Origin: a virus
Strand: one strand, 5' to 3'
DNA: 64,000 bases
Virus record (IMG/VR): IMGVR_UViG_3300046450_001953
Location: 3,414-67,413 of that record
The notes beneath the pieces are model-generated. The model was not told the origin of the DNA. It ran no database searches and saw nothing but the letters and a program-made list of their open reading frames with translations. Numbering within the stretch: position 1 is the first letter of the stretch; each line of letters opens with the position of its first letter. Shown here piece by piece: positions 8,948 through 44,761 of the stretch. Made by a program: the position numbers and the translations under genes.

Positions 8948-10203
8948 TCCACGAATACCTTTGTAAATTTAAATTGGTCTCTGGGTGTAAACGTCTCTAT
9001 TGTATGATGTATACCTTGGCCAATGGATTTACACATTTGTCTGGTTGTAAATTTATTAGTTTCCAAAAAATTGTCAGAATCACTCATGTCAATGTCACCA
9101 CAAGAAATCCGTGAATACATTTGGCCAATGGCCGCCGATATATCAATGGATGAGCATATATCCGAATATATATACGGAGTTTTCTGCGTACCAGATAATA
9201 AGCGAATCGTGGGTTCTATCTTTTCTGCCCATCGTTTATCATATTGGTCCTTTAACCCCCCTGTGTGTGATATTATTATAGGAGTTTTCGCAGCGACTGA
9301 TTCAAGGGTTGCTAAACCAAACCCCTCGGCCGATGCAACATTTATAGTGCAATGTGCCAGGTTGTACATATTATTTAAAACGGACTCGGTGACCGTTTCA
9401 CTTGATAGAAATACGGGTAAGTCGGGAAATAAATCATCAAGCAAGCAATTTATGTCGGGACCAGTCGGTGAGTCTGGGTTGGTGTGCAATAACAAAGCAA
9501 CTCCTCCCTTATCACACTCGGATACGGAATTTTCGTAGAATACAGAAAACCCCTCAATTAAATTTGCAAGTTGTTTACGTGATGTGTTAGCATTATTACA
9601 GAACAAAACAAACTTATAGTCTTGACCAAGGAAATCTATTCTATTGTGTATTATTTGTTTATCGGGTTGTTGATGATATATTTTTGTATTAACTCCGTGA
9701 GGTACAAGTGTGTAGTTTGTATGCTCTGGACATATTTTTTCAATACATTTTTTTGTAGTAATGCTTATACATCCAACCCAGTCGCAACTATTGTATATTG
9801 ATTTTAAAAACTTTGGATATGGGTCGTTGTCCCACACATGATAATATAATAATGGACAAACGGTTCTAACTTCATGTTCTATTTCAAATAACCAACCATA
9901 ACGATGTGGGTCCGTCATAATAACCACCGCGTCAGGTGATTCCATAAGCAATGTGCTTCTAAGTTGATCAGCTGAAGAATATCCGTTAGTTTCATGTAAT
10001 CGGACCGATGAGTTGGTATGACCTGTAATTTTTGATACAGATTCGGATACATCTACTATACTTGGATTTGTTCGTGATTTCCCACACGCAAGTTGCACGA
10101 AATCGAAGTCAGATACTAAATGAAGTATGATTTGTTTTAAGATGTTTGCCACACCGGTCGTGTGACGTATATCGTCCCCAATTAATAAAATCTTATTTTT
10201 CAA
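8944..10203 (-). CDS. GT-B fold (family 4) glycosyltransferase
   Basis: DDIRHTTGVA, VPHGVN, RKQ and AEGFGLATLES motifs. Confidence 0.88.
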   Translation of the reverse strand: MKNKILLIGDDIRHTTGVANILKQIILHLVSDFDFVQLACGKSRTNPSIVDVSESVSKITGHTNSSVRLHETNGYSSADQLRSTLLMESPDAVVIMTDPHRYGWLFEIEHEVRTVCPLLYYHVWDNDPYPKFLKSIYNSCDWVGCISITTKKCIEKICPEHTNYTLVPHGVNTKIYHQQPDKQIIHNRIDFLGQDYKFVLFCNNANTSRKQLANLIEGFSVFYENSVSECDKGGVALLLHTNPDSPTGPDINCLLDDLFPDLPVFLSSETVTESVLNNMYNLAHCTINVASAEGFGLATLESVAAKTPIIISHTGGLKDQYDKRWAEKIEPTIRLLSGTQKTPYIYSDICSSIDISAAIGQMYSRISCGDIDMSDSDNFLETNKFTTRQMCKSIGQGIHHTIETFTPRDQFKFTKVFVE

Positions 10204-10441: not shown

Positions 10442-10503
10442 TGTAAATAAATATACACAAGCTCAAAAAAAAATTATAAAAACTATAAAAACTTTGGGAT
10501 ACA

Positions 10504-11257: not shown

Positions 11258-12007
11258 ATGTCAAGGAAAAAAACAAAAACGGTAAACAAGAATCTCTTGG
11301 CTAATGCCCACATTGAATCAGAAATTCACGGCAACCAACTAGCCAGACCAATAAAGGTAAAGGCAAACAAACCGTTCACAGACAAGCAAAAGCACTTCAT
11401 CTCTATAGTTATGGACGAGGAGACTAAGCTTATATTTGTAGACGGACCGGCCGGTACGGCAAAAACATGGCTAAGTGTGTATTGCGGACTGCAACTATTC
11501 CAAGAAAGTATAATAGAAGAAATGATATATGTAAGAAGTGCAGTTGAAAGCTCCGACTCGAAACTTGGATTTTTACCGGGAGCTCAAGATGATAAAATGG
11601 CCCCGTATCTAGAACCATTTAAAGATAAACTAGAAGAATTACTTGATCCAATAGATATTAAATATTTACAAGAAGAAGAACGGATATATGGGATTCCTGT
11701 AGGTTTTCTCCGTGGTGCAAGTTGGGAAAACAAGTTTATTCTAGTAGACGAGGCACAGAACCTATCTGAAAAGGAATTAATAACCATTATGACCCGTATA
11801 GGTGAAAAGTGTAAAGTATTTATATGTGGAGATGCCATGCAAAGTGATATTGGCAACCGCAGTGGGTTTAACAATATTCTGGATTTATTTCACGATGAGG
11901 TGTCAAAAACACACGGAATACAGACATTTAAGTTCACAGAAGACGATATTGTACGCAGTCAATTGGTAAAATTTATAATTACTAAGTTAAAAAGTTTGTC
12001 GAAATAA
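11258..12007 (+). CDS. phoH: PhoH-family ATPase
   Basis: GPAGTAKT, LGFLPG, FLRG, DEAQN, TRIGE, GD..QSD and DIVRS motifs. GGAG RBS upstream. Confidence 0.95.
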   Translation: MSRKKTKTVNKNLLANAHIESEIHGNQLARPIKVKANKPFTDKQKHFISIVMDEETKLIFVDGPAGTAKTWLSVYCGLQLFQESIIEEMIYVRSAVESSDSKLGFLPGAQDDKMAPYLEPFKDKLEELLDPIDIKYLQEEERIYGIPVGFLRGASWENKFILVDEAQNLSEKELITIMTRIGEKCKVFICGDAMQSDIGNRSGFNNILDLFHDEVSKTHGIQTFKFTEDDIVRSQLVKFIITKLKSLSK

Positions 12008-14354: not shown

Positions 14355-16511
14355 ATGTCAAATTCAGCATTTAATATGTCAAAGTGTGGTTCGGGTGGAG
14401 GATCTGGATCATCATGTAATTCAACCGGGTGGACAGAAATACAACCCACAGACGGCAACGACATCACTGTTGTGTCAACGGACAAATTACGAGAAGCACT
14501 CCGGGAGATTTACTTGGAAGACAAGCAAGACCACATAACTCAAGTCGCAGACATCGTAAAGTTGGTATACGATTGCCCAAAGGAAGGTGACGCAGTATTT
14601 TACAACGCAACTAAGGGTGGTTATGATTTAGCATCTGCTGAGATTGACAATTCAAACTACTTTAAGGATCCAGAACACTTAATCGAATCTCTTGCGATAG
14701 TAGAGAAGGTCAGAGTTACTTGCCAAGACGGCCAAGATGTCCCCGACGCCGGATATACCGCAAAGGTGGTATTTTTCGGCAAGATAACATTTTCAGAGGA
14801 CTCTCCTGAGTTAGATCCGGGTATGGTATATTATCTTGCGAATCAAACGGCCATACTGAATACCGCAGGATCCAAGTTCAAACCAGTCGGGTCAAATGCG
14901 GTTCATGCGTTTTTTGAACCTACAATCAGCAAACCATTGTTTGTATCCACCGGAACACACACCGCAATAGTGACAAACTACCGACCGTTAACGGGTTCAC
15001 CGACAGGTGGACGTGAAATACTAGAGGAATATAGTCTAAGAATCGATCCCCATGTCTATAACGACTCAGATGGAAACTTCATCTCCACGGGATGGAAAAT
15101 CAGAGTTGATAACACAGGTACCGTTTCGAGTCGCAACCACTTGCTTCTTCAAATTGAGTACAACAAACTTGAGGGCCCTCAATCTACATCACATGAGCAG
15201 CTAATAGGATCTGAAACATATGTGCATCACATTGATATCGGAATTCTGCATAACGAAGCTGAGGCGGGAGTAAAGGATGATGACGAAATTGAATACTTCA
15301 AAATAATTGACTTCAACAAAGCCTCCACCGAGTATTGTACAGGGATAGGTGAAGTTTCTGTAAAACTCAAGGTCATAACACAATCTACTGCAAATATAAA
15401 TATTAAAGATAAGTTAGCTTCCCCCGAGGTTCTTCTTACAAATGCCGATGATATAAAGGCAAGTAGAATAGTACCAACACTTGAGTGGAGAGGTAGTTGT
15501 GCAGACAACCTTGACAATGACAACGACATATTTGTTAAAGGGAATCAAAAGCACTCCGATATAGAATATGAAGAAGGTTCGGTGTTTGAAGTAAAACTGG
15601 TAAACTCAGTAATCGACGCAGTTGGTGGAGATGACCAATATCAATTTAAGGTAGAGATGCCGTACAACATAGGATTCAAGGTGGATGCTCTGATTGAAAA
15701 CTCCCAAGGAGAATATGAATCAGACCCCGAGTGGAGTCCTATTACAAATTCATTCGGACTTTCACTGCCAGACAAGGAACTCATAGAAATCATACCAGTT
15801 TCCTCGGCCGGCACTACGATAGTGGAAAAGAATCTTCGTATTTCTGCAACAAAAATTAATGGCGATGAACTACCCGACACACACTGGGCAAACATTTATT
15901 CGGCCACAAAACTTAGTAACAATCGTGTACTTTGTCTTTCAAACTCATGTTGCATTGACGAATACGAACAATTTATACCAGAGAATTCAAACTCTATTGA
16001 CAAATCGATTACATCAATATTAACCGATGGAGACTCCGCACTTATTAACAACAAGGATGGCGCAACATTCCATAGCAAGGGAGTAAATAGACCATCTTGG
16101 TCAGGGTCTAAATCATCAACAGGAACTGCAATGGGACTGTCATGGAAGAATTGCAGAGAAAATACGATATTCTGCTACCCACCGACCAACCAAGGGACTA
16201 CCGCATCCTTCATGACAATTTACGCAGACGAGGCCCGAGTCATAACGGATATAGTAACACATGAGAAGGTGGATAACGAATCGCAGTTTTATGACCCACG
16301 ATACACTCTCATGGAAATAGGCGCACAAAACACACTTGATGGCCACCATGTTAGACTAACGGTAAACTCGGGTTCATCGGTGGTAGGTGCAAAAGAAACT
16401 TGTTATGTATTTAAGTTCAACGGAAGTAATCTTGGGACCCACTTCACACTGGAAGAATTAAGGCAACTTGATCCATCTTTTTCGGAACGGGAAATACAAA
16501 GTTCTGAGTAA
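14355..16511 (+). CDS. Virion structural protein with a C-terminal copy of the SWKNxRE repeat domain
   Basis: N-terminal module is paralogous to 12072-13949. C-terminal LSWKNCREN...FMTIY...EIGAQNTLDG...GTHFTLEEL. Confidence 0.7.
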   Translation: MSNSAFNMSKCGSGGGSGSSCNSTGWTEIQPTDGNDITVVSTDKLREALREIYLEDKQDHITQVADIVKLVYDCPKEGDAVFYNATKGGYDLASAEIDNSNYFKDPEHLIESLAIVEKVRVTCQDGQDVPDAGYTAKVVFFGKITFSEDSPELDPGMVYYLANQTAILNTAGSKFKPVGSNAVHAFFEPTISKPLFVSTGTHTAIVTNYRPLTGSPTGGREILEEYSLRIDPHVYNDSDGNFISTGWKIRVDNTGTVSSRNHLLLQIEYNKLEGPQSTSHEQLIGSETYVHHIDIGILHNEAEAGVKDDDEIEYFKIIDFNKASTEYCTGIGEVSVKLKVITQSTANINIKDKLASPEVLLTNADDIKASRIVPTLEWRGSCADNLDNDNDIFVKGNQKHSDIEYEEGSVFEVKLVNSVIDAVGGDDQYQFKVEMPYNIGFKVDALIENSQGEYESDPEWSPITNSFGLSLPDKELIEIIPVSSAGTTIVEKNLRISATKINGDELPDTHWANIYSATKLSNNRVLCLSNSCCIDEYEQFIPENSNSIDKSITSILTDGDSALINNKDGATFHSKGVNRPSWSGSKSSTGTAMGLSWKNCRENTIFCYPPTNQGTTASFMTIYADEARVITDIVTHEKVDNESQFYDPRYTLMEIGAQNTLDGHHVRLTVNSGSSVVGAKETCYVFKFNGSNLGTHFTLEELRQLDPSFSEREIQSSE

Positions 16512-17233
16512 TGAGCATTGGTATTGTAATACCAACTTACAAACTCTGCAAGTATAGGTTAGAAAACCTTGCATTCAACCTCCGCCACATGGTTGCATCG
16601 GGAATTCCCAACATCTATGTGGTTGAACAACTCTCCGAAGATGAATCGGTAAGACGCGTCCTAGAATCCTTTCCCCGTGTTCGTTATATCACCAAATCTA
16701 TCGAAGGGGGGGTATTTAATAAGTCTAAGTTGATTAACTACTCAGTAAATGAATTGCAGTTTGAGTATATATGGATATATGATGTTGATGTATTTATGGA
16801 TACCAAGTTTGTAATCCGTAGTATACCCGACTCAGTTGATGTAGTTCGTCCGTTTGAGAAGATAATAATGCTAAATGAAACCGAATCAGAAAAACTTAAA
16901 CGCACCGATTTGATATATTTGGATAAACGAAGTTATGACGGATATAATAGCTTTGGTAAGTTTTCACTTATACTAAAACGAGACATATTTGAAAAAGTTG
17001 GAGGATACGATGAAACTTTCCAAGGTTGGGGATTTCAAGACTTGGATTTAACTCAACGCATACCCAATGGTTGCTATGAGGGGTATATGACTAACACTGG
17101 ATTCCATATGTGGCATCCCCGGCCATCAACTGAATTTTATCAAACAAACAAGACCTCGTTTACAAAACGGCACTCCGGTGTAACTAAACCACCAAGAAAA
17201 AAGAAAAAAAAGAATTTGCTTGATAGTTTCTAA
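16511..17233 (+). CDS. GT-A glycosyltransferase (family 2 / galactosyltransferase C-terminal type)
   Basis: FNKSKLIN, IYDVD, GGYDETFQGWGFQDLD and HMWH motifs. Confidence 0.85.
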   Translation: MSIGIVIPTYKLCKYRLENLAFNLRHMVASGIPNIYVVEQLSEDESVRRVLESFPRVRYITKSIEGGVFNKSKLINYSVNELQFEYIWIYDVDVFMDTKFVIRSIPDSVDVVRPFEKIIMLNETESEKLKRTDLIYLDKRSYDGYNSFGKFSLILKRDIFEKVGGYDETFQGWGFQDLDLTQRIPNGCYEGYMTNTGFHMWHPRPSTEFYQTNKTSFTKRHSGVTKPPRKKKKKNLLDSF

Positions 17234-17248
17234 AAATATATATATTAT
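17220..17248 (+). promoter_or_regulatory. Sigma70-like promoter TTGATA-N17-TATTAT
   Basis: The -10 element ends 7 nt before ATG 17256. Confidence 0.5.
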
Positions 17249-17255
17249 ATATTAT

Positions 17256-17927
17256 ATGAAAAATTATACGGAATCTCAACTTGAAGAAAACTACAAGCAG
17301 TTTTTAGACTTTATTGAAAAAACCTTTACGGGTGAACGGCAGGAAAAGCTGCTGTATATGTATGGAACTGATGATGGGTGTCTAGGTCTTCGTGCGTTAA
17401 CATCACCCGCAAGTAGCATAGATAGGTTTCACAACGCATACGATGGTGGTTATATTGACCACGTCCTTGGGGTATGTAAGACCGTAAGGGGAGTCAAGGT
17501 CTTATTGCAGAGCATAGGGGCCCACATCGACTTCACCGATGACGAAATGATGTTCGCTGCATTCAACCACGACTTAGGAAAACTTGGGACACCCGATGGG
17601 GAACAATATGTACACAACGAAAGTGAGTGGCATAGAAAAAACCAGGGCAAGTTATACAACATCAACCCAGACATTCACTGGATGACCGTTACAGATAGGT
17701 CGGTCTGGTTACTTCAACACTTTGATATTAAAATAACCGAAAAGGAATTCATCGGGATCAAGTTATCCGATGGTATGTATGATGACTCAAATATTCAGTA
17801 CCTAAAATCCTTTTCAAAAGAGGTCGGACTAAAGACCGAACTACCCAGAGTAATTCATTGGGCAGACCACATGACCTGTCTTGCAGAGAAGTCAACTATG
17901 GATGATATTATGAAGTTCACTCCATAA
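17256..17927 (+). CDS. HD-domain phosphohydrolase
   Basis: PAS...HNAYDGGYIDHV...NHDLGKLG...HWAD motifs. Confidence 0.85.
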   Translation: MKNYTESQLEENYKQFLDFIEKTFTGERQEKLLYMYGTDDGCLGLRALTSPASSIDRFHNAYDGGYIDHVLGVCKTVRGVKVLLQSIGAHIDFTDDEMMFAAFNHDLGKLGTPDGEQYVHNESEWHRKNQGKLYNINPDIHWMTVTDRSVWLLQHFDIKITEKEFIGIKLSDGMYDDSNIQYLKSFSKEVGLKTELPRVIHWADHMTCLAEKSTMDDIMKFTP

Positions 17928-18560: not shown

Positions 18561-18590
18561 AAGAGGGTACAAACTTTACCTTCTTTTTTT
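18561..18590 (+). terminator. Intrinsic terminator after hsp20
   Basis: AAGAGGGTA-caaactt-TACCTTCTT hairpin running into a T tract. Confidence 0.7.
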
Positions 18591-18658
18591 ATAATTATAT
18601 TATATTTATCTAAGAGTGCGACGAATGTGTAAAGCTTAACTAGGAGATATATATTATT

Positions 18659-19759
18659 ATGAAGATGTTTACGGCAATTTTAGGCCTTTTGGCCCTTGCG
18701 GTTGCAGGAACCGCAGCTTTCTTTTCGGTGTGGGGTATTAGTTTATTATTCGCAGGAGCATCCATTGCCGCGATGATAATGGCAGGTGTACTTGAAGCAG
18801 GAAAGTTGGTGATGACATCGTTTCTGTATCGTTATTGGGAAAGAATCCCAAAGTTGTTGCGAATATATTCTACCGTGGCGGTGGTAACTCTAGTTGCTAT
18901 CACCTCACTTGGTATTTATGGGTTTTTAAGTGACGCATACGATGATACACGTGCAAAGGTTGAAATGCACGAACATACCATCACGCAGATAACAAAAGAG
19001 AACGCACACATTGAAGCAGAGATGGTATCCTTGAAAAGTTCATCAGCCACAGTTGACACAAAGTCCACCGAAACCATAGCAGGTTTCCAAAAGATATATG
19101 ATGATTTTGTGTCAGACAGGCGATCAAGACAAGATTCCCTTGCAGACAGACATAAGTCAGATACCACATCCAGGTCGCTGAGAAGACAACAACTATTGGA
19201 TAGACTTGCCACATTGGATAAATCAAGAAGTGATCTTGAATCTTCCGGCGGGGGTATATTTTCAAGCAAGAAGAAAAAACTTGAAGAGTTGGCAAAGGCA
19301 CAGGCACCAGAAAGAACCTCTACCGCAGAATCTATGAAGAACATTGATGAAGACGAGTCATCCGCAATAACTTCCTACGATGAACAAATAAAGAAGATTG
19401 ATGCGGAGATAGAGGCAGAGTATCAAGTGTTCGTTGGGAAGGTTAATTCCTTAAGAGATGAGTCTAATAAGATAGATAATACATCCGATATTGAAGCAAA
19501 CTATGCTAAGTTGCGAGCAAACGAGCAAAGAATTCTTGAGAATAAGGATGCAATTCGTGACACGGATATAGGAAGTTTTAAATTTATAGCTCAGTCTTTT
19601 AATACACCATTGGATCAAGTGGTAAAGTGGTTTATCATCATAATAGTGGTAGTGTTTGACCCACTTGCAATTGCATTGGTGCTTGCATATAACATTGCAA
19701 GTAGTGGACGGCTGACTCTTGGTGATGAGCCAGATGCTCCGAAAAAAAAAATTGGATAG
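18659..19759 (+). CDS. Membrane protein: three N-terminal TM helices, long coiled coil, C-terminal TM ([12 protein letters not shown])
   Basis: Hydrophobic N-terminus with LEAGKLV and [11 protein letters not shown], coiled-coil middle, [19 protein letters not shown] upstream. Confidence 0.85.
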
Positions 19760-20439
19760 ATAATCTTCCGTTTGCCGAGAGGTTTCAAGAAGAGAGTGAG
19801 TTCGTAGTAGACGAACCTACCGAAGTTACTCCAACTCCAACTCCGAGTCCAACTCCAACTCCAACTCCGAGTCCAACTCCAACTCCAACTCCGAGTCCGA
19901 GTCCAACTCCAACTCCGAGTCCAAGTCCTACCCCGACTCCGAGTCCAACTCCTACCCCAACTCCGAGTCCAACTCCGAGTCCAACTCCAACTCCGAGTCC
20001 AAGTCCTACCCCGACCCCGACTCCGAGTCCAACTCCAACTCCGAGTCCAACTCCAACTCCGAGTCCAACTCCAACTCCGAGTCCAACTCCAACTCCGAGT
20101 CCAACTCCAACTCCGAGTCCACTACCAACTCCTACCCCGGTGATTAAACCAACACCAACCGATGACAATGTTATATCAACACCCCTATATGACACATCAG
20201 ACACCGATCCAACTGATCCCGACTCTCGTGGTCCCTACTATGTACCTTGGAAAAAAACATCAATGGATTTGTATAATAAAATACACAGACCCGATGAGGA
20301 CAGTAGTTATTGGGCAGAGACTCGTTACAAATCCCAAGACGGATATATATCAGGAAGCACACTCGGTAATGTGCCAACAAAGAATGATAATACCAAAGAA
20401 AATTCCGATGATACCACGGACAAAAACGATAAAAAATAA
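19750..20439 (+). CDS. -1 frame extension of the upstream membrane protein (Pro/Thr/Ser-rich linker plus acidic C-terminal segment)
   Basis: Frame open 19729-20439 with no ATG/GTG/TTG before 20140. Entered from the A10 run at 19742-19751 it reads [34 protein letters not shown]... Confidence 0.65.
19828..20160 (+). repeat. Coding hexamer tandem repeat (CCAACT/CCGAGT; Pro-Thr/Pro-Ser)
   Basis: About 50 consecutive PT/PS dipeptide codon pairs. Confidence 0.95.
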
Positions 20440-20455
20440 CTATTGTTGTTTTATG

Positions 20456-20484
20456 TTGACATATAAATAATAATATGTGATAGT
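20456..20484 (+). promoter_or_regulatory. Sigma70-like promoter TTGACA-N17-GATAGT
   Basis: Perfect -35 at 20456. The -10 element ends 7 nt before ATG 20492. Confidence 0.55.
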
Positions 20485-20491
20485 AGTAAGT

Positions 20492-20782
20492 ATGTTTAGT
20501 ATACAATTCGACCCAACTCTTTTATCTTATGGATTTATTATATATACACTAGTTCTGTGTATTGGTGTATACATTTTAGTTAATTTATATAGAAAGGTAA
20601 AAATATATGAAAACTGGTCACTTGGTATACGAGAGCAAATAGAGAAACTTCAACGAGATGTAAAGGAGATAGATGTCCGTGAAATCTTCAAAAGTGATGA
20701 TGATGTGGGGTTTATATATGGTGACATATCGGACATAATAAAAAACATTGATCACGGGGTTAACCCAGAAAATACAAAATGA
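20492..20782 (+). CDS. Small single-pass membrane protein with coiled coil
   Basis: N-terminal TM helix and F.SDDDVG motif. ATGA overlap with the next gene. Confidence 0.7.
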   Translation: MFSIQFDPTLLSYGFIIYTLVLCIGVYILVNLYRKVKIYENWSLGIREQIEKLQRDVKEIDVREIFKSDDDVGFIYGDISDIIKNIDHGVNPENTK

Positions 20783-30550: not shown

Positions 30551-33500
30551 ATGGAAACATTTTTTCAGCATACATACGCATCGAATGTAGATACCAAAAC
30601 AAACTCTCTCCGTGGAAGTTTGATCCCAACCCAAGATTTTCAAAAAATTAGGGATGTTGAGCAACCTGGTATCAAGTTTGGTAAGAACGCGAAGGATGTT
30701 ATAGAATTTTCTGTGTTTTCCCCTCGGAATGAAATTTTCGGTTGGAAACTTGTAGAACAAGCACCCAACTATATAACTAAGCAGTTTTCGTATAAAACAC
30801 CAGCAGGAGAACTTAATACCAGAACCATATCTTATTTAGATACCTTGTACCCAACAACATCCGACCGCGGTATTTTAATATCACCGAAACACGAACTAGG
30901 ACAATTGGGTGTAACGCAGGGTGAATTTAAGATTAAAATATCATATAGAAATGATATAGTTGGTTCTTTTGATAATCCATATAAGTTTATAATAAAAGAC
31001 ATATCTAGTTCTAGAACTGAAATTCGTGCATTCCCCCAGTCATTAAAAACTACACAAAACCCAGATCAGGTAGCATTCAATTTTGAATATAATAATTTTC
31101 TTAACAAACAAGTTGTAGTTGGTTCACTTGTGGACCGTGTCGGTGATTTATTGAAAACCGAGTTATTTACATCTGAATTAGAAACAAAGAAGTTTAGTAG
31201 TAACACATCCGACTACGACTCTTACATTAAAAAGATAGAGAAATCATTCTCCATATCAGAAATTGAACTTCTGAGGGAGTTGGATCAACTTTATATTTCA
31301 CTTAGTGATTTCTATAAAAATTTTATATTTGGTAGTTCTAATTCTGTATTTAACAAAGAAAAATTTTACTTAGAATATATAAATTCAATTGACTTTACGT
31401 TGAATAACTTTTCACGTTTTTTACAAGAACCAAATGAAGATATAAAAGTATTCTATAAATATATGCTACTTCAAATGTTTGACTCTGCCTTGTTGGATAG
31501 TATTTTTTATGAGAAGTTCGATAAATATCTGGCCAATTTATTAAACTTAGGAAACGGAATAAGTGTACCGATTTTAAAATACACAAATTATACGGACGAG
31601 TCACTTGGTAAAAGTGCCAACGATGTTCTTTTAATTAAGCTCCTCACTCCACTCGACGAAGCAATTACCGAGGAAACGCAGTTTTACATATCACAGAACT
31701 TATATTCAGATGATATTATTAAAAACATAATCCTCAGAACAACACCAGACGATTCATCCCGTACATTTAAGTTAAGAGGCCCGGATATTTCTCAAAAAAT
31801 AACAACCGACACCACAAAAAAATATACCCTACACGGAGATACAGATGGTCTGTTGGATGAAGACATGGGTTCGGCTGAAAAATATTTTAAGACAACAAAC
31901 GATGAAGTGTCAAATCTTAATATAGACTACACGGATTTCAAAAATTTTGTAAAGTTTTCCTCCGCTCGTGCAAGGGTTGATAATTTTGTTTTAAAACTAA
32001 CTAAAATTTCTAAAATAAAAACAAGAATAAACGACTATAATAGAAAAATAAACTCAATTGATAATAAACTATCTATGGGTGAGGTTGAAGAAACAACAGC
32101 ACTGGATTCGATATCAGTAATGAGAACTGGTGATATTAAAAAACTATACTCTGAGATTTATGATATAATTTCAACATTTACACCATACGAAAAATATTTG
32201 TATTATGATAGTAGTGAGACTTCCTGGCCTCGGGAAACATCGTTTAGTTTATATGGTTTTACAAACGCAGTTTCACCGGCAAATGGTGTGTATAAATTAC
32301 GAATGCATAGGAAATATGATCTAGATAAAGTTTTTACAAACGAAGTAGACCGAGCATGGAAGATCCAGTGGGATTCACTTATAAGTAAGTGGCAACTCTT
32401 TAATGAAGAGCTGGGTTTTCATATATACTCAAATACACAAAATTTAAGCTCTGGGTTTACATCAAACGAATCCGACAATAAATCAGAGGAAACAACAAAG
32501 AATCACGTTGGATTTGATAGACAAGAATCTGCGTTTAGTAGAATCTACATAGATGCGGAGTATAAAGACAAAGTGGCTATTTTTCCACCCGAACATATAC
32601 CCACGGATATGAGTGACTTTAAGCAAACCGATGGGTTTGCTTGGTACAAGAAAACCGCGGCAGCTGCTGAGTTATATGACAAGCACAATGACGATTCCTT
32701 GAGAAATAGCATTCCTGAGTTTTTGGTAAGAACAAATGAAAATGATGACTTTACTTCATTCTTAAACATGATAGGAGAGCAATTCGATATTCTGCTCGTT
32801 TATATCGAGGCCATGACGGACATGGCAAGTGTAAGAAATTCATACTCAAAGGGAGTACCCAACCAACTTGTTTGGTTTGTAATGAACTCATTCGGAGTTA
32901 AATTTACAGGACGAGCGGTAGATGAATTGTCAATCAGTAAAATCTTTGAAGAAAATAGAAATACCGTCTGGAGGAGAATATTAAACAACCTGCCATATAT
33001 TCTAAAAAGTTCGGGAACAGAAGAGTCACTTAGGGCGTTGTTTCGTTGTTATGGTATACCAGATTATCTATTTAGTATACGTGAATATGGAGGTATGAGG
33101 CACGGCACAGACGCCACCGATGACGATGCTACATTTAGAATTGACACCCATGATTATGCACTTAAATTTACCGAACCCGACCAATATATAGAAGTTCCTC
33201 TGCAACCCGATAAAGTTAACGAGGGTGCGGTGTCAATTGAACTCCGTGTCAGTATTGATACTGACGTGTTTAAAACTGCCAAAGAATATACATCATTTAA
33301 CCCGGTGGAAGCCGGTAAGATACCAAGCAACATGGGGTGGGAGAAACCAATTGATAAGATTATAGAAGAATCTGATTTTCTAATTGGAAGCAAACGACCA
33401 AGATTTTATAGCAAGAGAGAATCTGATAATTCATATATACACCCCGGATGGGATGTCAATTCCGACATAGCACTTTCTTGGAAAAACTTCCGAGAGGGTG

Positions 33501-36500
33501 TGTCATTTTCTTATCCCAAAGTCGCGTCCGGTAATATACCCGCGTTTATGACAATTTATTCGGACGAGGCCAAGTTAGGAACGAATCACGGAGATTCACG
33601 TGACTACGACCCCATACACACTCTTGCAGAAATTGGAGCTCAAGAAACTTTAAATGGTCAAGTGGTCCGGTTGTTATTTAACCAAGGATTAAGTAATCAC
33701 CAAAACACAGACAACAAGAGGAATCAGGATTTTTATATAGACTTCATGTTTCGGGGAACCACCGCAGGGGTTCACATGACGATATCCGAACTCAGAGAGG
33801 GTGGTTCACAAGAACTCCGGTTTCAGGGTTATTTCCCCATAATACACACCCCTGCGTGGGAGTTTGGTGTATACAGAGATGAGAATAATTATCCCGATGA
33901 ATACGGAAAATTTTATTTCAATTTGAACAATTCTGACGGAACCTGTATGTGTCCTTCAACTTTATCAAATCCCATTTATTTTGGTGAGAATAAAGAATAT
34001 GATATTTTAATAACCAAGTCCTCAGAAGACCACCACAGGGATTCAGAATTGAAACTTGTGGTTAAGAGAGTTTATGACGCCGACATATTGTTCGAGGACT
34101 CCAACTCGATTTTAATCTCAAGTTATTCAAGCAGACGAATTATGGAAACAGAAAAGTTTACACTTGGAAACTTCTATGAAGGTTCGTTTTTAGGAACACT
34201 TGATAGACTCCGGGTATACGCAGAAGAAATAAGTGAAAGTAGATTCACTAACCATATAAATCACAATCAGGGTTACGATATTGATGATTCGTTGAATTTA
34301 AAGGATAACTTGATCGTTAAGGTTAATTTTGATTACCCATATGACATTCACGGTGATATAGACAGTCCGGGTAAGATTAAAAATTATATCTTGGACGATG
34401 ACGAATCTTATATAAGTGCAGTCAACTTCACGACCACAGATTTCCCATATGATTTTACTGGAAAGAGCAGACGGGAACATACTCGGTTGCCAACCTTCGG
34501 AGCTCAGGTATTTAATAACAATAAAATAAGAATTGAAGAGCAAACTAAGATAGCACCCCTTAGTCCCTTCGGCCGCTCAACCAAGAAAGCAAAGGATAGA
34601 CATTCAGTAGATACAAATTCACTTGGGGTCTATTTTAGTCCGTCTGATATAATTAACCGAGAGATTATACGATTTATGGGTAACTTTGATTTGGGTAATT
34701 TAATAGGTGACCCATCTGACACCCACGCAACTTCGTATAGAAAACTAGAGAGCTTCAAAAAAATATTTTTTGATAATGGATTTGGTAATCTGGACATACA
34801 GAGATATTTTAATTTGATAAAGTCTTATATTGATCCATCTTTGTTTGAGAATATGGAAAAACTTATCCCTGCCCGAGCAAATCTTATTTCTGGGTTGTTG
34901 GTAGAACCCACTTTGTTGGAGAGAAACAAAATCATACCACCTCGGATTAGTTCACATTCATGGATTGATGAGAAAAAGAAAAAAAATAACAAGGAGTATG
35001 TAACTAATATTTTAAGTGTGAATTTTGACATATTGTCAACGAAGTCTAAAAATAAAAACATATCCAGTTTTGCAAACGAACGGAGTTATATCAAGTCATC
35101 TGGTGATGATTTCAAGTTAATGCACGAAGCTAACATCAACTCTTATGATAAAAAACAGAGTTATACATACGACTACAATTTTGGTGGATCGTTTATAGGA
35201 GAACATGAGTCGGATAAAACACGGGATGTCTTCGCTGTACATGGGTGTGTAGATATTAACAACACTCTATATAAGATTGAAAAGACCAAAACAATATTAC
35301 AATTAGGTTCTGAGTATGGTGGTAGTCGGGTAGACTATGATGTGTTATTTAATGATGGAATACAGATAAGTGGATTCACCGATGGGATGGAATCTGCCAA
35401 TGGTGTATATGAGTTTAAACTTCGGGGCAGTTCTGGGTTACCTGTGTTTACAAACGAGACCAGAAAGTGGTGGGTTTTCTATTCTAACTACATGGGTTCT
35501 TGGATAATTGCTTCGGATAATACTATTGGTGGTGGAAAGAAACTGGCCCTCGGAAAAACCAAAAATTATAAAAACTATACATGGATTTCCGGTAACAAAC
35601 TTACAGATACTAACACAAAGACACCCGACTGGTTTAGCACCGGGTTTCGCCAATCACTCCCATCAGACAACCTCCCCGAAAAAAACACAGACTACTTTGC
35701 CCGAGTAAATTTCATATCAACATATGACAGATTTATAGATGTAGACGCATATTTGCAAGGTTGGGTCAATGTGGAAATGGTCGGAATATATCAGGGTACA
35801 TACACAGAACGAACGACTGACTCCACCACAAACACCATATCAGACAACGTCTACCCCAAAGATCAATATGTGTTCTCTGGATCCAATGTGTATGCCTACC
35901 TTAACGGTACATTCAGAGGAAAGTTGCAAAACGGTTGGGTTGGTGGTGCAAGTGTCAATGAAACCGATGCAGATAAGGTTATCCGGATAGTTGGTGAGTT
36001 CAATGGAGTTAAATACGAGTCGTGTGAAAACCCACATTACACATCGGGTAACATCAACTCACTTGTGAGTTTTGCCAATCGCGATAAATTGGTTTTTGAT
36101 TTTAGAAATTACGAAAGTGACACGGTTACATTTACACCCAAAGAATTTGATTCGGTTAATTTGGTTAAAATTCCAGAAGAACTGATCAGTAAAAATAAAA
36201 TAGATTTTAAATTTCTAGGAGACTTCAAGGTAGAGTTATCGGGGACGTCCGACTCAGACAACTTTAGCAGTGGGGAGTATGCTAACACTCATGTGTATCA
36301 GACCACAGACACATTTCACTCTCCTGTTATATATGAATGTGATGTGAAGTTCGGTATAAGCATGAAATCGTCTGCTATTCTAGATGCAATACCCCTTGCT
36401 CAGAATATTGCCTTCAAACCACAAAAGAAACACCTCTCCAAAAAAGTAAACAACTCAATCCTTGGTCTAAAGTTTTCCCCCAACGGTAAGATTGAGGGAG

Positions 36501-39500
36501 TGGAAATATTAAATGTAGGTGGGAATTTTGTACCCGGTTATATATACAACGAATCGGGTAAACAAGAAACAAACAAGATAGTTGATTTTATGTCTGATAT
36601 AGAGTCTAATGTAAATACGGAGATTCTGAATTCAACTGTAGATACAATCCAGCATTATATAGATACCGACGTACACTTTGGAATTGTTGTGATTGGTGGA
36701 AGCACAACCGACTTTGATGTAGCACTTTTAGTCTTGTTTGAAAAGAATACTTCATTCACCAACAAGATATGTAGTAATTTAAACTTAAATAAAACAAGAA
36801 CAACAAAAATTAAGGAAGCAGTTTCATTTGAAACAACTTCTATGCACGTAGGTAAACTCCCACAATACATAAAAGATATAGAAATACTCACCTCGGGTCG
36901 TGGGTATGTGGGAACAGAGCAAGTCGTAATTGGAGGAACAAAACCAGACAATTGGAAAAGTTCATGGCCACAACGGGCCACCGTATCTGAGTTATTCATA
37001 TTAGATGAAACAGATGGATCGATAGTTAGGGTGAACCCACACCACTATATGCTCACCGGAATAAATTGGTCATCCGATAACACTGTTACGTTTTCATCTA
37101 CACCAACGATAACTATAAATAAACCAGACTTGAGTGACGATGAAGATCAACCACTCCCCAAACTTGCCCACGCCCGATGCATCACCGGAGAACCTACTCC
37201 CTTGGTAAATGTTAATGTGGATATTTTAAATTTTGGAAATTTACAAGTTGGTGACGAGATCGGCCGACCGTTAGATTCCGGAACGTCTATGTTTTTTAAG
37301 ACCCAGTCAATGCTTAGATATGACACCGGGTTGGTACACTCTAAGCAAGTAAACATTCAAACAACAGACCGACCAACCGACTCAAAACTTGATATGTGCA
37401 GTGTAGTGTTGTTAACCAGCAATTCACTTACCGAATTTGAAGTTTATGTAGACACTAAATTAAAAGAGGTAATGCGAACGGATATGTGCGGAAACAACTC
37501 ACCAGTCTCCTCAGATACCTATGACATCCAGGTATTAAATTTCGGCGAGGTCCACGAACCTGAACACGACATCACCTATATCAATAGTGGAGTCCCCGTG
37601 AATAATTTCTTTTTAATGACAAACGAATACGAGGAAGCTGAACTCCAAGGGAGTCTGGGCGATGATCAGTATGTAGATAAACTTTCCGCGGATTATACAA
37701 ATAGAACTTCGACCGGGTTTCTTAGAATTTCTGGTTTTTATGGATTGGCCTCCTCCGCAAACGGTATGTATCAAATGAAAACCGATGTTGCATATTGTGA
37801 TTCACCAAATACGAACAATCAAACACCAATTCCAACATATGTAAACGAAGGCATGGACTGGATTCTTGAATATGACGAACACACAGCCCACTGGGTTCTT
37901 AGGAATGTTAAAAACTTAAACTATATAGTATCAAGTACAAAATATATAGAAGATGGTTTCCTTGCCACCACCGATAATAATACTGGATTTTTTAATGGAG
38001 ATGAACTCATAATATTGGATGACTACACCGTTGATCGTAACGGGGTGGTCTTTGATGAGGATATGAATATAATCGGCCATGAGTTTCAACATGCAGATGT
38101 TAAGGTTCATAATCGGTTTAAGATCACCCCAAACAAACTATTTTTTGAACTTAACAAAGGAAAGTTTAATAACTTTTTGATTTGGAAACTCAGAATTCAA
38201 TCTCGCAAAAATGCTTCGTTTATATATGACATTCCTATTGTGTATATTAATACCGATTTTGAAGATGCATCCTTTTTAAGCAAATATGATCAAGTGCAAA
38301 CCCGACTAAAAACACTTAACATCATACAATACCAAGAAACCAGTATATGTGAGTTGAATTTCCAAAACGCAGTTGATTGGAAAATTTCAGTTCCTGAGAC
38401 ATCATATGGGGTTTTCTCCAATGATGTTGAAATTAAAACCCACGGAAAAACTTTATTGTCTGCGGGGGTGTGTACCAAACTGAAGTCGCACACCAATACG
38501 GCCGGTCCGTATTATTATGTGGGTGGTGATATAGTGAACAAGTTCAATTCTAAAATAATGTTCTCTGATTATTATTCTAATTGGAAACTTGTATCGGGTA
38601 GTAATGAGGATACATTGCTTAGAAGCAAAAACTACCCCGCGGTGGGTATATACAAAACAACCACCAAAAACATAATAGGGGTGTGTAAATATGAAACCTA
38701 TGGGTCTGAGTTGGTGGTTTCTGTGTCTAGGTTTGACCAAGAGTATTCTGATGCGAATGGTATATATCGAAGTGTCGGATATTTGTCCACGGGGGAGTAT
38801 ATGTTCCGAAACGAAAACAATTGGATATTTTTCACAACCAACAACGGAGACAACTGGACAATCCAAGACTCAACTAGGTATCCATCTTATATAATCAAAG
38901 AGGAAAACCAAGTATCTCAATCAGGAGTATACACAGATACATCGGGGTTGGTAAAGGTCTATGTTAATTTCGGAATTAAATTTGAATTTGAGAATAGTAG
39001 GGATTTTATAGGAGTCAATACCGACAACCTAAAATTAACTAGTCAGACCAATAGTCTCATGGTGTATACTCCAACTGGGTTGGAAAAGACCAATGTAGAT
39101 GATGTCTCCCTTGATATTAAATTTGAGTGCATATACGCACAGACCAAAACGGATTATTATCAAACCATACCATGTGAGTCCCGAGCCAGTCATTTAGACC
39201 TCAGTCGGTATGGTGATTTAATATTTAATTCAAACTTAGAGATAGTTAATAACGATGAAACTGAAGTATTGAGCATAGAACTTGTTTCATCCAAAACTGA
39301 TAATTTAAATAAAGAGAATAGTTCTATGCAAGTTTTGCTCTCTGATGATATGATAAGCAACGGAGTTATTAATGAAGATTTTTATTCTAATAGATTTGAT
39401 TCTAATAAAAAATACTACATAGATGATTTGGTATATTACAATACTAATATGTGGAAGTGTAAAAAAGAAACTCCTGACAACCGCAGTGTCGTACCGGGGG

Positions 39501-41692
39501 TCGATTTTGATCATGATAGATATTGGGTAACCAACGACTCAAACTATTTTGTTGATATGAAAATCTCCATGCAAACCTCCACGAAAAAAGAAACCTACAA
39601 AACAACCAAAATCATACAGAAGCACTCCAAGACATACAAAACACCATTTGTTGAATTTTTCGAATCCAGAAGTTCTATTGAGTCTGGTGTAGATTTACCG
39701 ACTGAGTGTTTTATTAAAAAATCATATGATATTGAAAAAGAATATCAACCGCATGATATATCTGCAATTGGAACTGGGGCGGATGTATTGGAATTCGGCC
39801 GACAAACAAAACATACAAACAACGGATATACAAGAAATACTAAAATTTCCGTAAACGGAGAAGACACCACTGTTAGCCAGTCGGGGTATTTGTGTAAGAA
39901 GCCTGCGATTGTCAGAACCCCAAAACCCCGTCAAAATAGTGGAGGCGTGGAGTTTGGTGACTCATTTTGGTTCAATCAGGATAAAGCACATTCTATAATA
40001 GAAACCAACACAGACTTAATGTTTGAGAAACCTGAAAATGACCCAATCGTTTCTTTTACATTTGAGGAGTACAACTTGGTAGATGAGGTCACACTTGTGG
40101 TAGACCGACTTGCAGGAGAACATATAACAGGTGCGAATGGAGAGTACACGAAGACAGATAGATCATATAATAATAATAATGTGTTTGTGAAGGGTGGGGT
40201 GTGGTTTATTTACAAAGATACATCTTGTTGGATATTAACAAATTCACAGAGCTTTGTAGACCCCGACACACTAAGTGCTTCTGATAGTGCATGGACTACT
40301 ACGAATTCCGAACGAATTGATAGTGATTTAAACGGAAATCACGGAAGCAGTTCAGAGTTTATAAATGAACGAGGTGTGGTAGATGTTGTGTGCAAAACAT
40401 CAATAACCCCCACCCCCGATCCCGAACCAACCCCAACTCCCGAACCAACCCCAACTCCCGAACCAACTCCAACCTCATGGGAGTCACCATCCACACCCGT
40501 CCCAGTGCTGACCCCAACCCCCTCAACTGACATCGGAGTGACACCGACACCAACACACACACCAACCCCAGAACCCGAAGAACCTACAACTACACCAGGT
40601 CCGTTTTTATTTGAATTTGATAACTATGCAATAACACGTGAACGATATGATCTATCAAACGAGGATTCCACACAAGTCGAGGCAAAAATTAAAGAAGATT
40701 TGTTTAATACCAACTATAATGTTGACTCAATTGCAACCGTAGAGGATTTACTTGAAGACGAATCACTTCTTGGAAAAATACCCGACGAGATAAAAACATT
40801 TAATATAAAAGTGGCAAACTATGTAAAGTTGGTAGGAGGTGATATCAAAGAGGGTTCGGTATCTAGTTATGCTTGGAACCCAGACGGAATATTGAAAAAC
40901 GGTACACATAGATCATTTTATATGTCAAAAAGGCAAGGAGGTCGCCAACACACGTATGATAACCAATATCAGTTTGATGAGTATGGATATTATATAAAAA
41001 GTTGGTTTGGTCCCCGCAACGTATTGGTTAAACTAAAAAACCAAATTGAACGAGTTAAATACCCAACTGCAAGTTCTGGACTGCACGATGGAATTTTAAT
41101 TAAATGGAAAGCATCTCCCAATGCAGATTATGTTAGACTAGAAAAGAAGGTCGGTGAGGAATGGGAAACAGTAGAAGATAAATTATCTCAAGTATACTCA
41201 GTTTCTGGATACATGGATACTTCCACATCCGAATCTCAGAGTGTGGAATATAGAATTATCGCAGTTGGTTCATCAAAAACCGAAGCAAACTCGGACTCAT
41301 TTTTTGGATGGAAACTTGGAATGCCAACAAAACCTTCTCATATAAGTGCTTCTTATATGGACTTTTCTGATAAAATAAAAGTTGATTGGGATGTTTCTGG
41401 TATGACAAATACATTTAATAAGACAGCCGATTTTACAATATTGAGATCAGAGACAAATAATTTTGACGAGTATTCCAAGTTCACAACAATTGCCACAGGG
41501 GTAACTAAAACTCCATACTATGATATGTTCACCGAGTCAGATTTCGATGATAGGGTATATTGGTATATGGTTGTTGCAAACAACGCAAAATCCAATAACC
41601 TGAGTTCAAGTGAATATGAGGAAAAAAGTAACTGGTCAGATTCCGTGTCGGGCCGTCTAATCGAAGGTTTTAATTTCAGTCAGGAGGAATAA
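30551..41692 (+). CDS. Giant baseplate/tail-associated protein (3713 aa) with LamG-like, SWKNxRE, CBM5/12-like, PT-linker and two FN3 domains
   Basis: Baseplate-like core ([16 protein letters not shown]...LRAL..CYG), LamG-like [19 protein letters not shown]...WKC module (~39395-39530), and C-terminal FN3 pairs (I.W...Y.D...YRI.AV). Confidence 0.8.
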
Positions 41693-44719: not shown

Positions 44720-44761
44720 AGATAACGTATAAATATTTAGATATAAATATATTTATATGTT

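Follow-up and report, generated by a model that had tools for sequence, protein, structure and literature searches.

A conserved A10 run at the end of a marine T4-like phage membrane-protein gene is a probable programmed recoding site

How is a long, conserved reading frame translated when it lies behind a gene that ends in another frame and carries no start codon where it begins? The question is raised by a locus in the 64,000-nucleotide (nt) stretch of viral DNA analyzed here (the window), which comprises bases 3414-67413 of the 67,413-base viral record IMGVR_UViG_3300046450_001953. Because the window encodes PhoH, Hsp20, glycosyltransferases, gp25-like and other baseplate wedge proteins, together with two giant proteins of 3713 and 3275 amino acids (aa), we take it to be a piece of an uncultured T4-like myovirus; the sequencing runs that contain its DNA are seawater and marine metagenomes. 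One of its genes encodes a membrane protein and ends just past ten consecutive adenines (A10). Our analysis suggests that A10 is a programmed recoding site at which the reading frame would move by -1 in a fraction of products, on balance mainly through slippage of RNA polymerase and perhaps with some -1 ribosomal shifting.

The gene (18659..19759, + strand) encodes 366 aa with four membrane helices and a coiled-coil hairpin. As the initial annotation had it, the run occupies 19742..19751 and the gene end reads directly on the + strand as GCT CCG AAA AAA AAA ATT GGA TAG. Frame 0 thus divides the run as AAA AAA AAA A(TT), with the heptamer A_AAA_AAA in frame-0 register at 19744-19750, and the stop codon TAG (19757..19759, + strand) follows two codons, or 5 nt, past the run. 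The frame scan agrees with the limits first proposed for the -1 frame, which is closed by TGA at 19726-19728, open from 19729 to TAA at 20437-20439, and without any ATG, GTG or TTG before the GTG at 20140 (codon 130 counted from the Asn codon at 19750). The only start-bearing open reading frame (ORF) in the downstream frame is the one from this GTG, 20140..20439.

Counted from Asn 19750, the -1 extension is 229 aa long, all on the + strand: a conserved junction motif formed by its first 26 codons (19750..19827), a 104-aa Pro/Thr/Ser linker (19828..20139; 52 Pro, 34 Thr, 17 Ser and 1 Leu) and a 99-residue end with a conserved C-terminal module and an acidic/Lys-rich tail (20140..20439, including the stop). 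Joined to the first 364 residues of the membrane protein, it would give a predicted long form of 593 aa. The earlier estimate of about 50 PT and PS dipeptides stands (38 PT and 17 PS in the linker), as do the other facts given in the initial annotation. The linker DNA consists of 18/24-nt tandem repeats (Tandem Repeats Finder), and its length and composition vary among relatives. The third frame is closed as well: TAA at 19761..19763 (+ strand) means that the product of a one-base deletion also ends at once (..KKKLDR*), and this +1 frame ends at the fourth codon in 37 of 40 sequences. That stop may be a by-product of the Asp-Asn codons in the -1 frame.

A single A10 in 64 kb is not remarkable alone, as first-order Markov simulations of the window give an expectation of 1.4 runs of at least ten A per strand. 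What exceeds chance is the invariance and position of the run among relatives. A protein-guided scan of viral contigs found 39 related loci with 61-83% protein identity, and all 37 that cover the gene end carry exactly A10 followed by TAG five bases on. Two loci from a profile-guided scan (L062 and L081) also have exactly A10 with TAG at that distance, and the run is present at this length in 40/40 viral-collection sequences (the window and 39 viral loci). We also searched viral and metagenome contigs for a pattern of A8 to A12 between conserved flanks. Every one of the 34 viral matches was A10; among 43 metagenome matches, 28 were the membrane gene, all 28 with A10, and the other 15 had unrelated flanks. 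At least 7 of the 28 equal viral contigs in length and are probably the same records, and the two sets therefore overlap. Across 26 distinct sequences aligned from -120 to +45 around the stop, all ten run columns were invariant (26/26).

The codons of the run are more strictly kept than its amino acids require. In 29 distinct genes, 154 alignment columns hold an invariant amino acid (Met and Trp excluded) and only 10 of these use one codon throughout. The run supplies three of the ten with its successive Lys codons, AAA in 29/29 genes; other invariant Lys columns mix AAA and AAG in 9 of 10 cases. An internal KKK (alignment columns 205-207) has AAG as its middle codon in 27/29 genes, and the A stretch there stays short. 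The first residues of one sequence, L029, look out of frame in the codon alignment, which only lowers the count of invariant columns; its tblastn match (L029:300-1396) spans 1097 bases, not a multiple of three, and the contig probably carries a one-base indel near the gene start. Within the window's 21 long ORFs, Lys is encoded by AAA 602 times vs 363 for AAG, and of the 14 KKK triplets just one, at this gene end, is written AAA AAA AAA. A conserved KKKK marks the tip of the coiled-coil hairpin (window 19268-19282) and is coded AAG AAG AAA AAA, with a longest A stretch of six. Relatives keep AAG in this cluster, opposite to what they do in the terminal KKK. The run thus appears to be selected as a nucleotide sequence. 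A substitution at the junction speaks for coding in the -1 frame: ATT -> ACT changes Ile to Thr in frame 0 and is silent in the -1 frame (AAT -> AAC, Asn).

Selection acts on both frames, and it changes register at the run. Minor-base counts by frame-0 codon position in the 26 distinct sequences were 95/97/251 upstream of the run and 16/115/40 downstream, where the peak coincides with the third position of the -1 frame. Counted in the -1 frame itself, variation in the C-terminal module was 196/140/380. This excess at third positions points to purifying selection on the -1 frame.

The extension is conserved at both ends. It starts with NW(I/V)D(N/D/K)LPF in 38/38 sequences, and its C-terminal module has 16 invariant columns in 19 sequences (..N.V.STP.Y...GPY.VPWK...M...Y...S..GN..). 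That alignment comprises the window and 18 distinct loci; L026, L027, L032, L038 and L081 carry the module by eye and were left out. Of the 30 extensions that reach a stop, 29 remain open for 181-357 codons. Two loci have an additional Cys/Trp-rich domain of ~110 residues between the junction motif and the Pro/Thr linker (L004:3592-4467 and L019:3592-4662), with the motif ..ICVSKT(E/D)D.F.YSGEY.LD...WQGKPAWVKRCEGSCSDEY(I/V)GMENERW(I/V)FW... The window is without this insert, which has no Pfam match and indicates that the tail accepts inserted modules.

Nowhere did the extension have a conserved entry of its own. There was no -1 frame start codon between the upstream stop and the run in 35/40 sequences, the remaining 5 having a non-conserved GTG 39 codons upstream, and within the extension the position of the first start codon varies widely, from codon 11 to codon 232. 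Nor did we find it fused to the membrane domain. Among 34 protein clusters at least 61% identical to the short form, none was longer than 379 aa and 32 end in PKKKIG or PKKKTG; the other two (P0025 and P0031) are truncated. When 1.84 billion representative proteins were searched exhaustively with HMMER for the module, its profile found 18 matches, none of them a fusion of the module to the membrane domain, and 17 of them fragments of 37-251 aa. The 18th, a 911-aa protein matched in five stretches (E 1.4e-4), is weak and was taken as low complexity. A word-based search found no longer proteins with the C-terminal module, which is weak evidence. Given the conserved head and module, the lack of a conserved start and the lack of any fusion, the tail is conserved, always out of frame and without an entry of its own. 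The comparison of homologues called for by the initial annotation therefore found an invariant run and conserved extension termini, and no homologue with a conserved start that would make the downstream ORF independent.

The membrane domain belongs to a much larger viral family (2336 proteins at E <= 0.001 among 8000 candidates scored). In the cultured-phage collection it matched 14 records, none covering 80% of the query and none above 43% identity, in a match to the N-terminal third. These include Flavobacterium phage immuto, several jumbo phages and Pelagibacter phage Mosig, and all matched proteins are hypothetical or unannotated. Long A runs occur in two further clades. In a sister clade with 43-44% identity (L082/L083, L085 and L086; also L042-L044), A9 takes the same position behind the last membrane helix, and the tail is in frame, with a Thr-rich linker, KVHVQW..DTD and EKIVEVEK repeats. 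A clade at ~30% identity (L099, L106, L110/L111 and L113) reads xxA AAA AAA AAG after helix 4, with the heptamer A_AAA_AAG in all five loci, and reaches its frame-0 stop within 0-5 codons. Behind this A9G run the -1 frame continues into a Pro/Thr linker and then a conserved end unlike that of the A10 clade (..W..LP...NF(I/L)(K/R)I(I/T)DNTP..), and in each of the three lineages the first A of the run falls at a synonymous third position (TTA or ATA). In a quick maximum-likelihood tree of 50 sequences, three clades each form one group: A10 with 16 rows and a support of 99, in-frame A9 with 3 rows (99) and A9G with 4 rows (97); the remaining 27 sequences have no long run, and their tails are in frame or missing. 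Since the two shifted clades, A10 and A9G, fall on opposite sides of the deepest, long split of this tree, the out-of-frame design would have arisen twice, or would be very old and often lost.

Taken together, the invariant run, the switch of frame and the missing fused or self-starting homologues support the two isoforms of 366 and 593 aa that had been proposed to arise by a -1 change at A10, and recoding of some kind is very probable. Read as written, A10 would give the 366-aa inner-membrane protein ending two codons past the run. In a fraction of expression events the frame would move by -1 inside the run, and the N-terminal 364 residues would continue into the 229-aa extension, that is the junction motif, the 104-aa Pro/Thr/Ser tether and the C-terminal module. 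The slippage, its rate and the machine that slips we infer from the sequence record. T4-like phages use the host RNA polymerase. On a run as long as its RNA-DNA hybrid, this enzyme would stutter and add one A to some transcripts, and ordinary translation of those transcripts would yield the long form. Ribosomes slipping by -1 on A_AAA_AAA may contribute. Both routes give the same protein, ..APKKK-NWID..

Within recoding, we consider polymerase slippage about twice as likely as ribosomal shifting to be the main cause, and polymerase slippage as the principal event is the explanation we favor, at somewhat better than even confidence. The locus has the features expected of a slippage site: an A or T run of at least nine within coding sequence, here A10 just ahead of the frame-0 stop, placed where the two products diverge, and behind it an ORF in another frame that has no start of its own and is under purifying selection. 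Nine A or T in a row are enough for efficient slippage of bacterial polymerase (PMC5009743). Every shifted clade keeps at least nine A, and a ribosomal shift needs only seven; the synonymous position of the first A in the A9G clade likewise favors the polymerase.

The strongest rival is that the event is mainly translational: ribosomes would slip -1 on A_AAA_AAA (A_AAA_AAG in the distant clade) or slide on poly-A, and the mRNA would stay A10. We rate this as the less probable explanation, at roughly a one-in-four chance in plain terms. The heptamer is in the correct frame-0 register, the distant clade has the exact dnaX-type A_AAA_AAG close to its frame-0 stop, sliding on iterated AAA codons has been reported (PMC4363877), and -1 frameshifting is described as frequent in phages, for example in the lambda G/GT tail chaperone (PMC5009743). 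The same source ranks A_AAA_AAG as the most shift-prone heptamer in E. coli and A_AAA_AAA, the form found here, as less shift-prone (PMC5009743). Against a mainly ribosomal event stands the lack of a conserved stimulator, either a stem-loop or pseudoknot 5-9 nt downstream or an upstream Shine-Dalgarno-like element. E. coli dnaX has such an upstream element and a downstream stem-loop, and neither is conserved at the phage site. RNAalifold on 18 sequences found no conserved RNA structure there (consensus fold -1.39 kcal/mol, no covariation), its fold being a weak AU/GU hairpin directly behind the run with a double change in one pair, and we found no convincing hairpin before or after the run. 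A GGAG ~15 nt 5' of the run occurs only in a 66%-identity subclade and is absent from the window, L003 and L004. The retention of 9 or 10 A by every shifted clade, where seven bases would suffice, also speaks against ribosomes as the main cause. Run length, the lack of RNA structure or stimulator and the slippage literature together lead us to favor the polymerase.

It is improbable that the extension is not joined to the upstream gene at all, whether as a gene of its own that starts in some unusual way or as what is left of a decaying tail that used to be in frame. Gene prediction does pick out pieces of it that begin at internal ATG, GTG or TTG codons, as the 17 HMMER fragments illustrate, and in one relative the linker is broken in frame. 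However, the conserved first residues precede any start codon, the internal starts are scattered, and many of the called fragments begin inside the conserved module, at the Met of its STPMYD motif (profile position 13). Third-position variation and the length over which the frame stays open in 29/30 complete cases likewise argue against an unjoined extension.

Genomic phase variation, which the initial annotation had raised as an alternative, is slightly less credible still. Replication slippage would toggle A10 and A11, and each genome would encode either the short or the long form only. Runs of 10 A are replication-slippage hot spots, and contigs hide rare variants, which makes low-level heterogeneity possible. 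Against this, no A8, A9, A11 or A12 was seen in the 40 viral-collection sequences or the 28 metagenome matches, and no long form was found in the 34 protein clusters or the 1.84 billion representatives; a genomic ON/OFF switch is thus not visible at consensus level. Finally, homopolymers are error-prone on some platforms, and the window could hold an assembly error in a true A11 and a single 593-aa ORF, the outcome that the initial annotation named as refuting its proposal; it has next to no probability as far as contigs can show, since the length is identical across many different assemblies, no A11 form or fused protein turned up in any database searched, and a contig from an independent DNA run (X4, from a sample not flagged as a possible window source) spans A10 with 0 gaps at depth 9.

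Several points weigh against the favored explanation. The preference for polymerase comes from run length and the lack of a stimulator, which is weak evidence, and the site also fits a -1 ribosomal shift, with A_AAA_AAA here and A_AAA_AAG in the distant clade. The proposed isoforms and mRNA heterogeneity are deduced from assembled contigs. Run comparison used Logan assembled contigs from three RNA runs and one DNA run out of 22; the contigs of the RNA libraries (X13, X16 and X17) match the gene perfectly at 18900-19173 and 19411-19648, but they end at 19612 or 19648, before the run, and presence in such a library is not the same as transcription. Lysines are in any case to be expected in a cluster behind a membrane helix, and in this DNA they are more often AAA than AAG; nine A in a row can thus come about with no selection on them, and the in-frame sister clade may be an example. 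In L014 the Pro/Thr linker goes out of frame part-way (L014:3583-3990, PQLLHRLLHPRKLQ...), and the C-terminal module is detectable further on by tblastn; this break is either an assembly error in the repeats or the mark of a decaying copy. The AlphaFold2 model of the C-terminal module is of low confidence (predicted local distance difference test, pLDDT, 59.1), and searches of Pfam, PHROGs, ESM Atlas, Foldseek/PDB and the neighboring genes found no partner or function.

Hydropathy of the short form places membrane helices at residues ~1-52 (two helices), 63-93 and 314-349. The AlphaFold2 model, built with 60 family members (mean pLDDT 80.1), likewise has two N-terminal membrane helices, with the third continuing as a helix over 65-195, then a turn at 196-203, a return helix at 204-300, a short amphipathic helix and the fourth membrane helix at 318-348. 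Helices 65-195 and 204-300 form a long antiparallel coiled-coil hairpin between membrane helices 3 and 4 in this model, and G198, G199, F201 and S202 of the turn are nearly invariant. Positive charge is strong in the loop that joins helices 2 and 3, the hairpin begins with acidic residues, and behind helix 4 come Arg and Lys. Under the positive-inside rule, this charge pattern would put the N-terminus, the helix 2-3 loop and the C-terminus in the cytoplasm and the ~15-nm hairpin in the periplasm, an assignment of low confidence. With a cytoplasmic C-terminus, the tail would be a flexible cytoplasmic tether that presents a short peptide module to a partner, again with low confidence; under the opposite topology, a possible alternative, it would be a periplasm-spanning linker like that of TonB.

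Searches for a function of the membrane protein gave little. Neither the short form nor the extension had a significant match in Pfam or PHROGs (best Pfam E = 0.039 for the 366-aa protein, below the cut-off). The best named family for the 366-aa protein, Rz-like spanin (phrog_739; E = 0.073), matched the coiled-coil part only and was not significant, and a match to phrog_15511 (E 8.4e-5) fell on the repeat region. Foldseek against PDB returned generic long coiled coils, none at E <= 0.001, and ESM Atlas returned only viral clusters labeled 'hypothetical protein', none named.

Gene order around the locus is fixed in the close clade: glycosyltransferase, an HD-domain phosphohydrolase-like gene (PHROGs match), Hsp20 and the 366-aa membrane gene, followed 3' by genes for a 101-aa membrane protein and for proteins of 240, 137 and 363 aa. 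Distant relatives have unrelated auxiliary genes in the neighborhood, with no lysis genes among them and no clue to function. A consensus scan placed a terminator-like hairpin and T-run at 18561..18595 (+ strand), 3' of the Hsp20 gene and 5' of the membrane gene; the same scan found no terminator-like site between the frame-0 stop and 20439. In the 37-nt spacer between the -1 extension and the next gene (20477-20782) lies a copy of TATAAATA (20462..20469, + strand). The window has 21 copies of this motif vs 5.95 expected, a count reached in 0/100 shuffles, and several copies stand directly 5' of genes (e.g., 20462, 42596 and 44728-44749). We take it to be the T4-type late promoter motif, and the copies in the window fit such promoters.

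Other long A runs in the window are an A9 at 10465-10473, between divergent genes ending at 10203 and starting at 11258, and an A8 at 17204-17211, in the KKKKK close to the end of the glycosyltransferase gene (16511-17233), which there overlaps the next ORF (17220-17927). Part of the linker has a 76%-identical counterpart in a second piece of Pro/Thr-type repeat DNA at 40408-40473 (G000:C1:43821-43886, locus L002). As it sits inside the 3713-aa ORF (30551-41692), the phage appears to use the same type of linker in this giant, presumably structural, protein.

Recoding at poly-A is already known as a mechanism, and the phage membrane gene would be a new case of it; we found no description of recoding in this gene family in full-text literature of limited coverage. 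The closest documented parallel is tssM1 of Citrobacter rodentium, where transcriptional slippage on an A11 run yields ~20-25% full-length form and both forms and their ratio matter (PMC4256274). There, as in tssM of Yersinia pseudotuberculosis, the gene of an inner-membrane protein ends shortly after a long A run, a C-terminal domain without a start lies in another frame, and slippage gives short and full-length forms, as demonstrated by experiment in tssM and deduced from sequence in the phage gene (PMC4256274). In contrast to the phage gene, tssM1 belongs to a bacterial secretion system, encodes an unrelated protein, has its extension in the +1 rather than the -1 frame and reaches its stop 28 nt rather than 5 nt past the run.

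Other known systems share parts of the design, as described in PMC5009743. Thermus thermophilus dnaX has a hybrid-length run of nine where its isoforms diverge and stops nearby in other frames; unlike the A10 gene, it reads straight through into the long form and yields the short one by slippage, which is the layout of the A9 sister clade (L082-L086) (PMC5009743). E. coli dnaX shares a slippery heptamer of Lys codons, carried in its exact form by the distant clade, but its shift shortens the product and that of the phage gene would lengthen it (PMC5009743). Lambda G/GT is likewise a conserved phage recoding event that sets a fixed ratio of a short and a C-terminally extended product; it differs in gene and slippery sequence, is purely ribosomal and makes soluble chaperones rather than membrane proteins (PMC5009743). 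Slippage in Shigella spa13 and related type III secretion genes extends 25-30% of the product at the C-terminus, an addition without which the system does not function, but the gene is carried on a bacterial plasmid and slips early in its ORF (PMC5009743).

Because gene callers stop at 366 aa and read the rest of the locus as fragments or nothing, the predicted proteomes of an abundant uncultured group of marine T4-like phages lack a conserved tail of 181-357 residues (229 in the window). If our interpretation is true, the natural cases of poly-A recoding gain a well-conserved one from a double-stranded DNA phage. Having natural members with the tail in frame and others with it out of frame, the family would be a convenient system for the effects of run length and context on isoform ratio, and it would also be useful for asking what role a membrane anchor that bears a long Pro/Thr tether has in infection. 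More tentatively, and with the odds against it, the A-run at the junction of last helix and tail may be a recurrent device that sets the ratio of untailed to tailed protein in a widespread family of phage membrane proteins. The in-frame A9 sister clade would then make mostly tailed and some untailed protein, lineages would go from 'mostly short' to 'mostly long' or back through one-base changes in the run, and behind a constant slip site tails would be swappable, the A10 and A9G clades carrying unrelated C-terminal modules.

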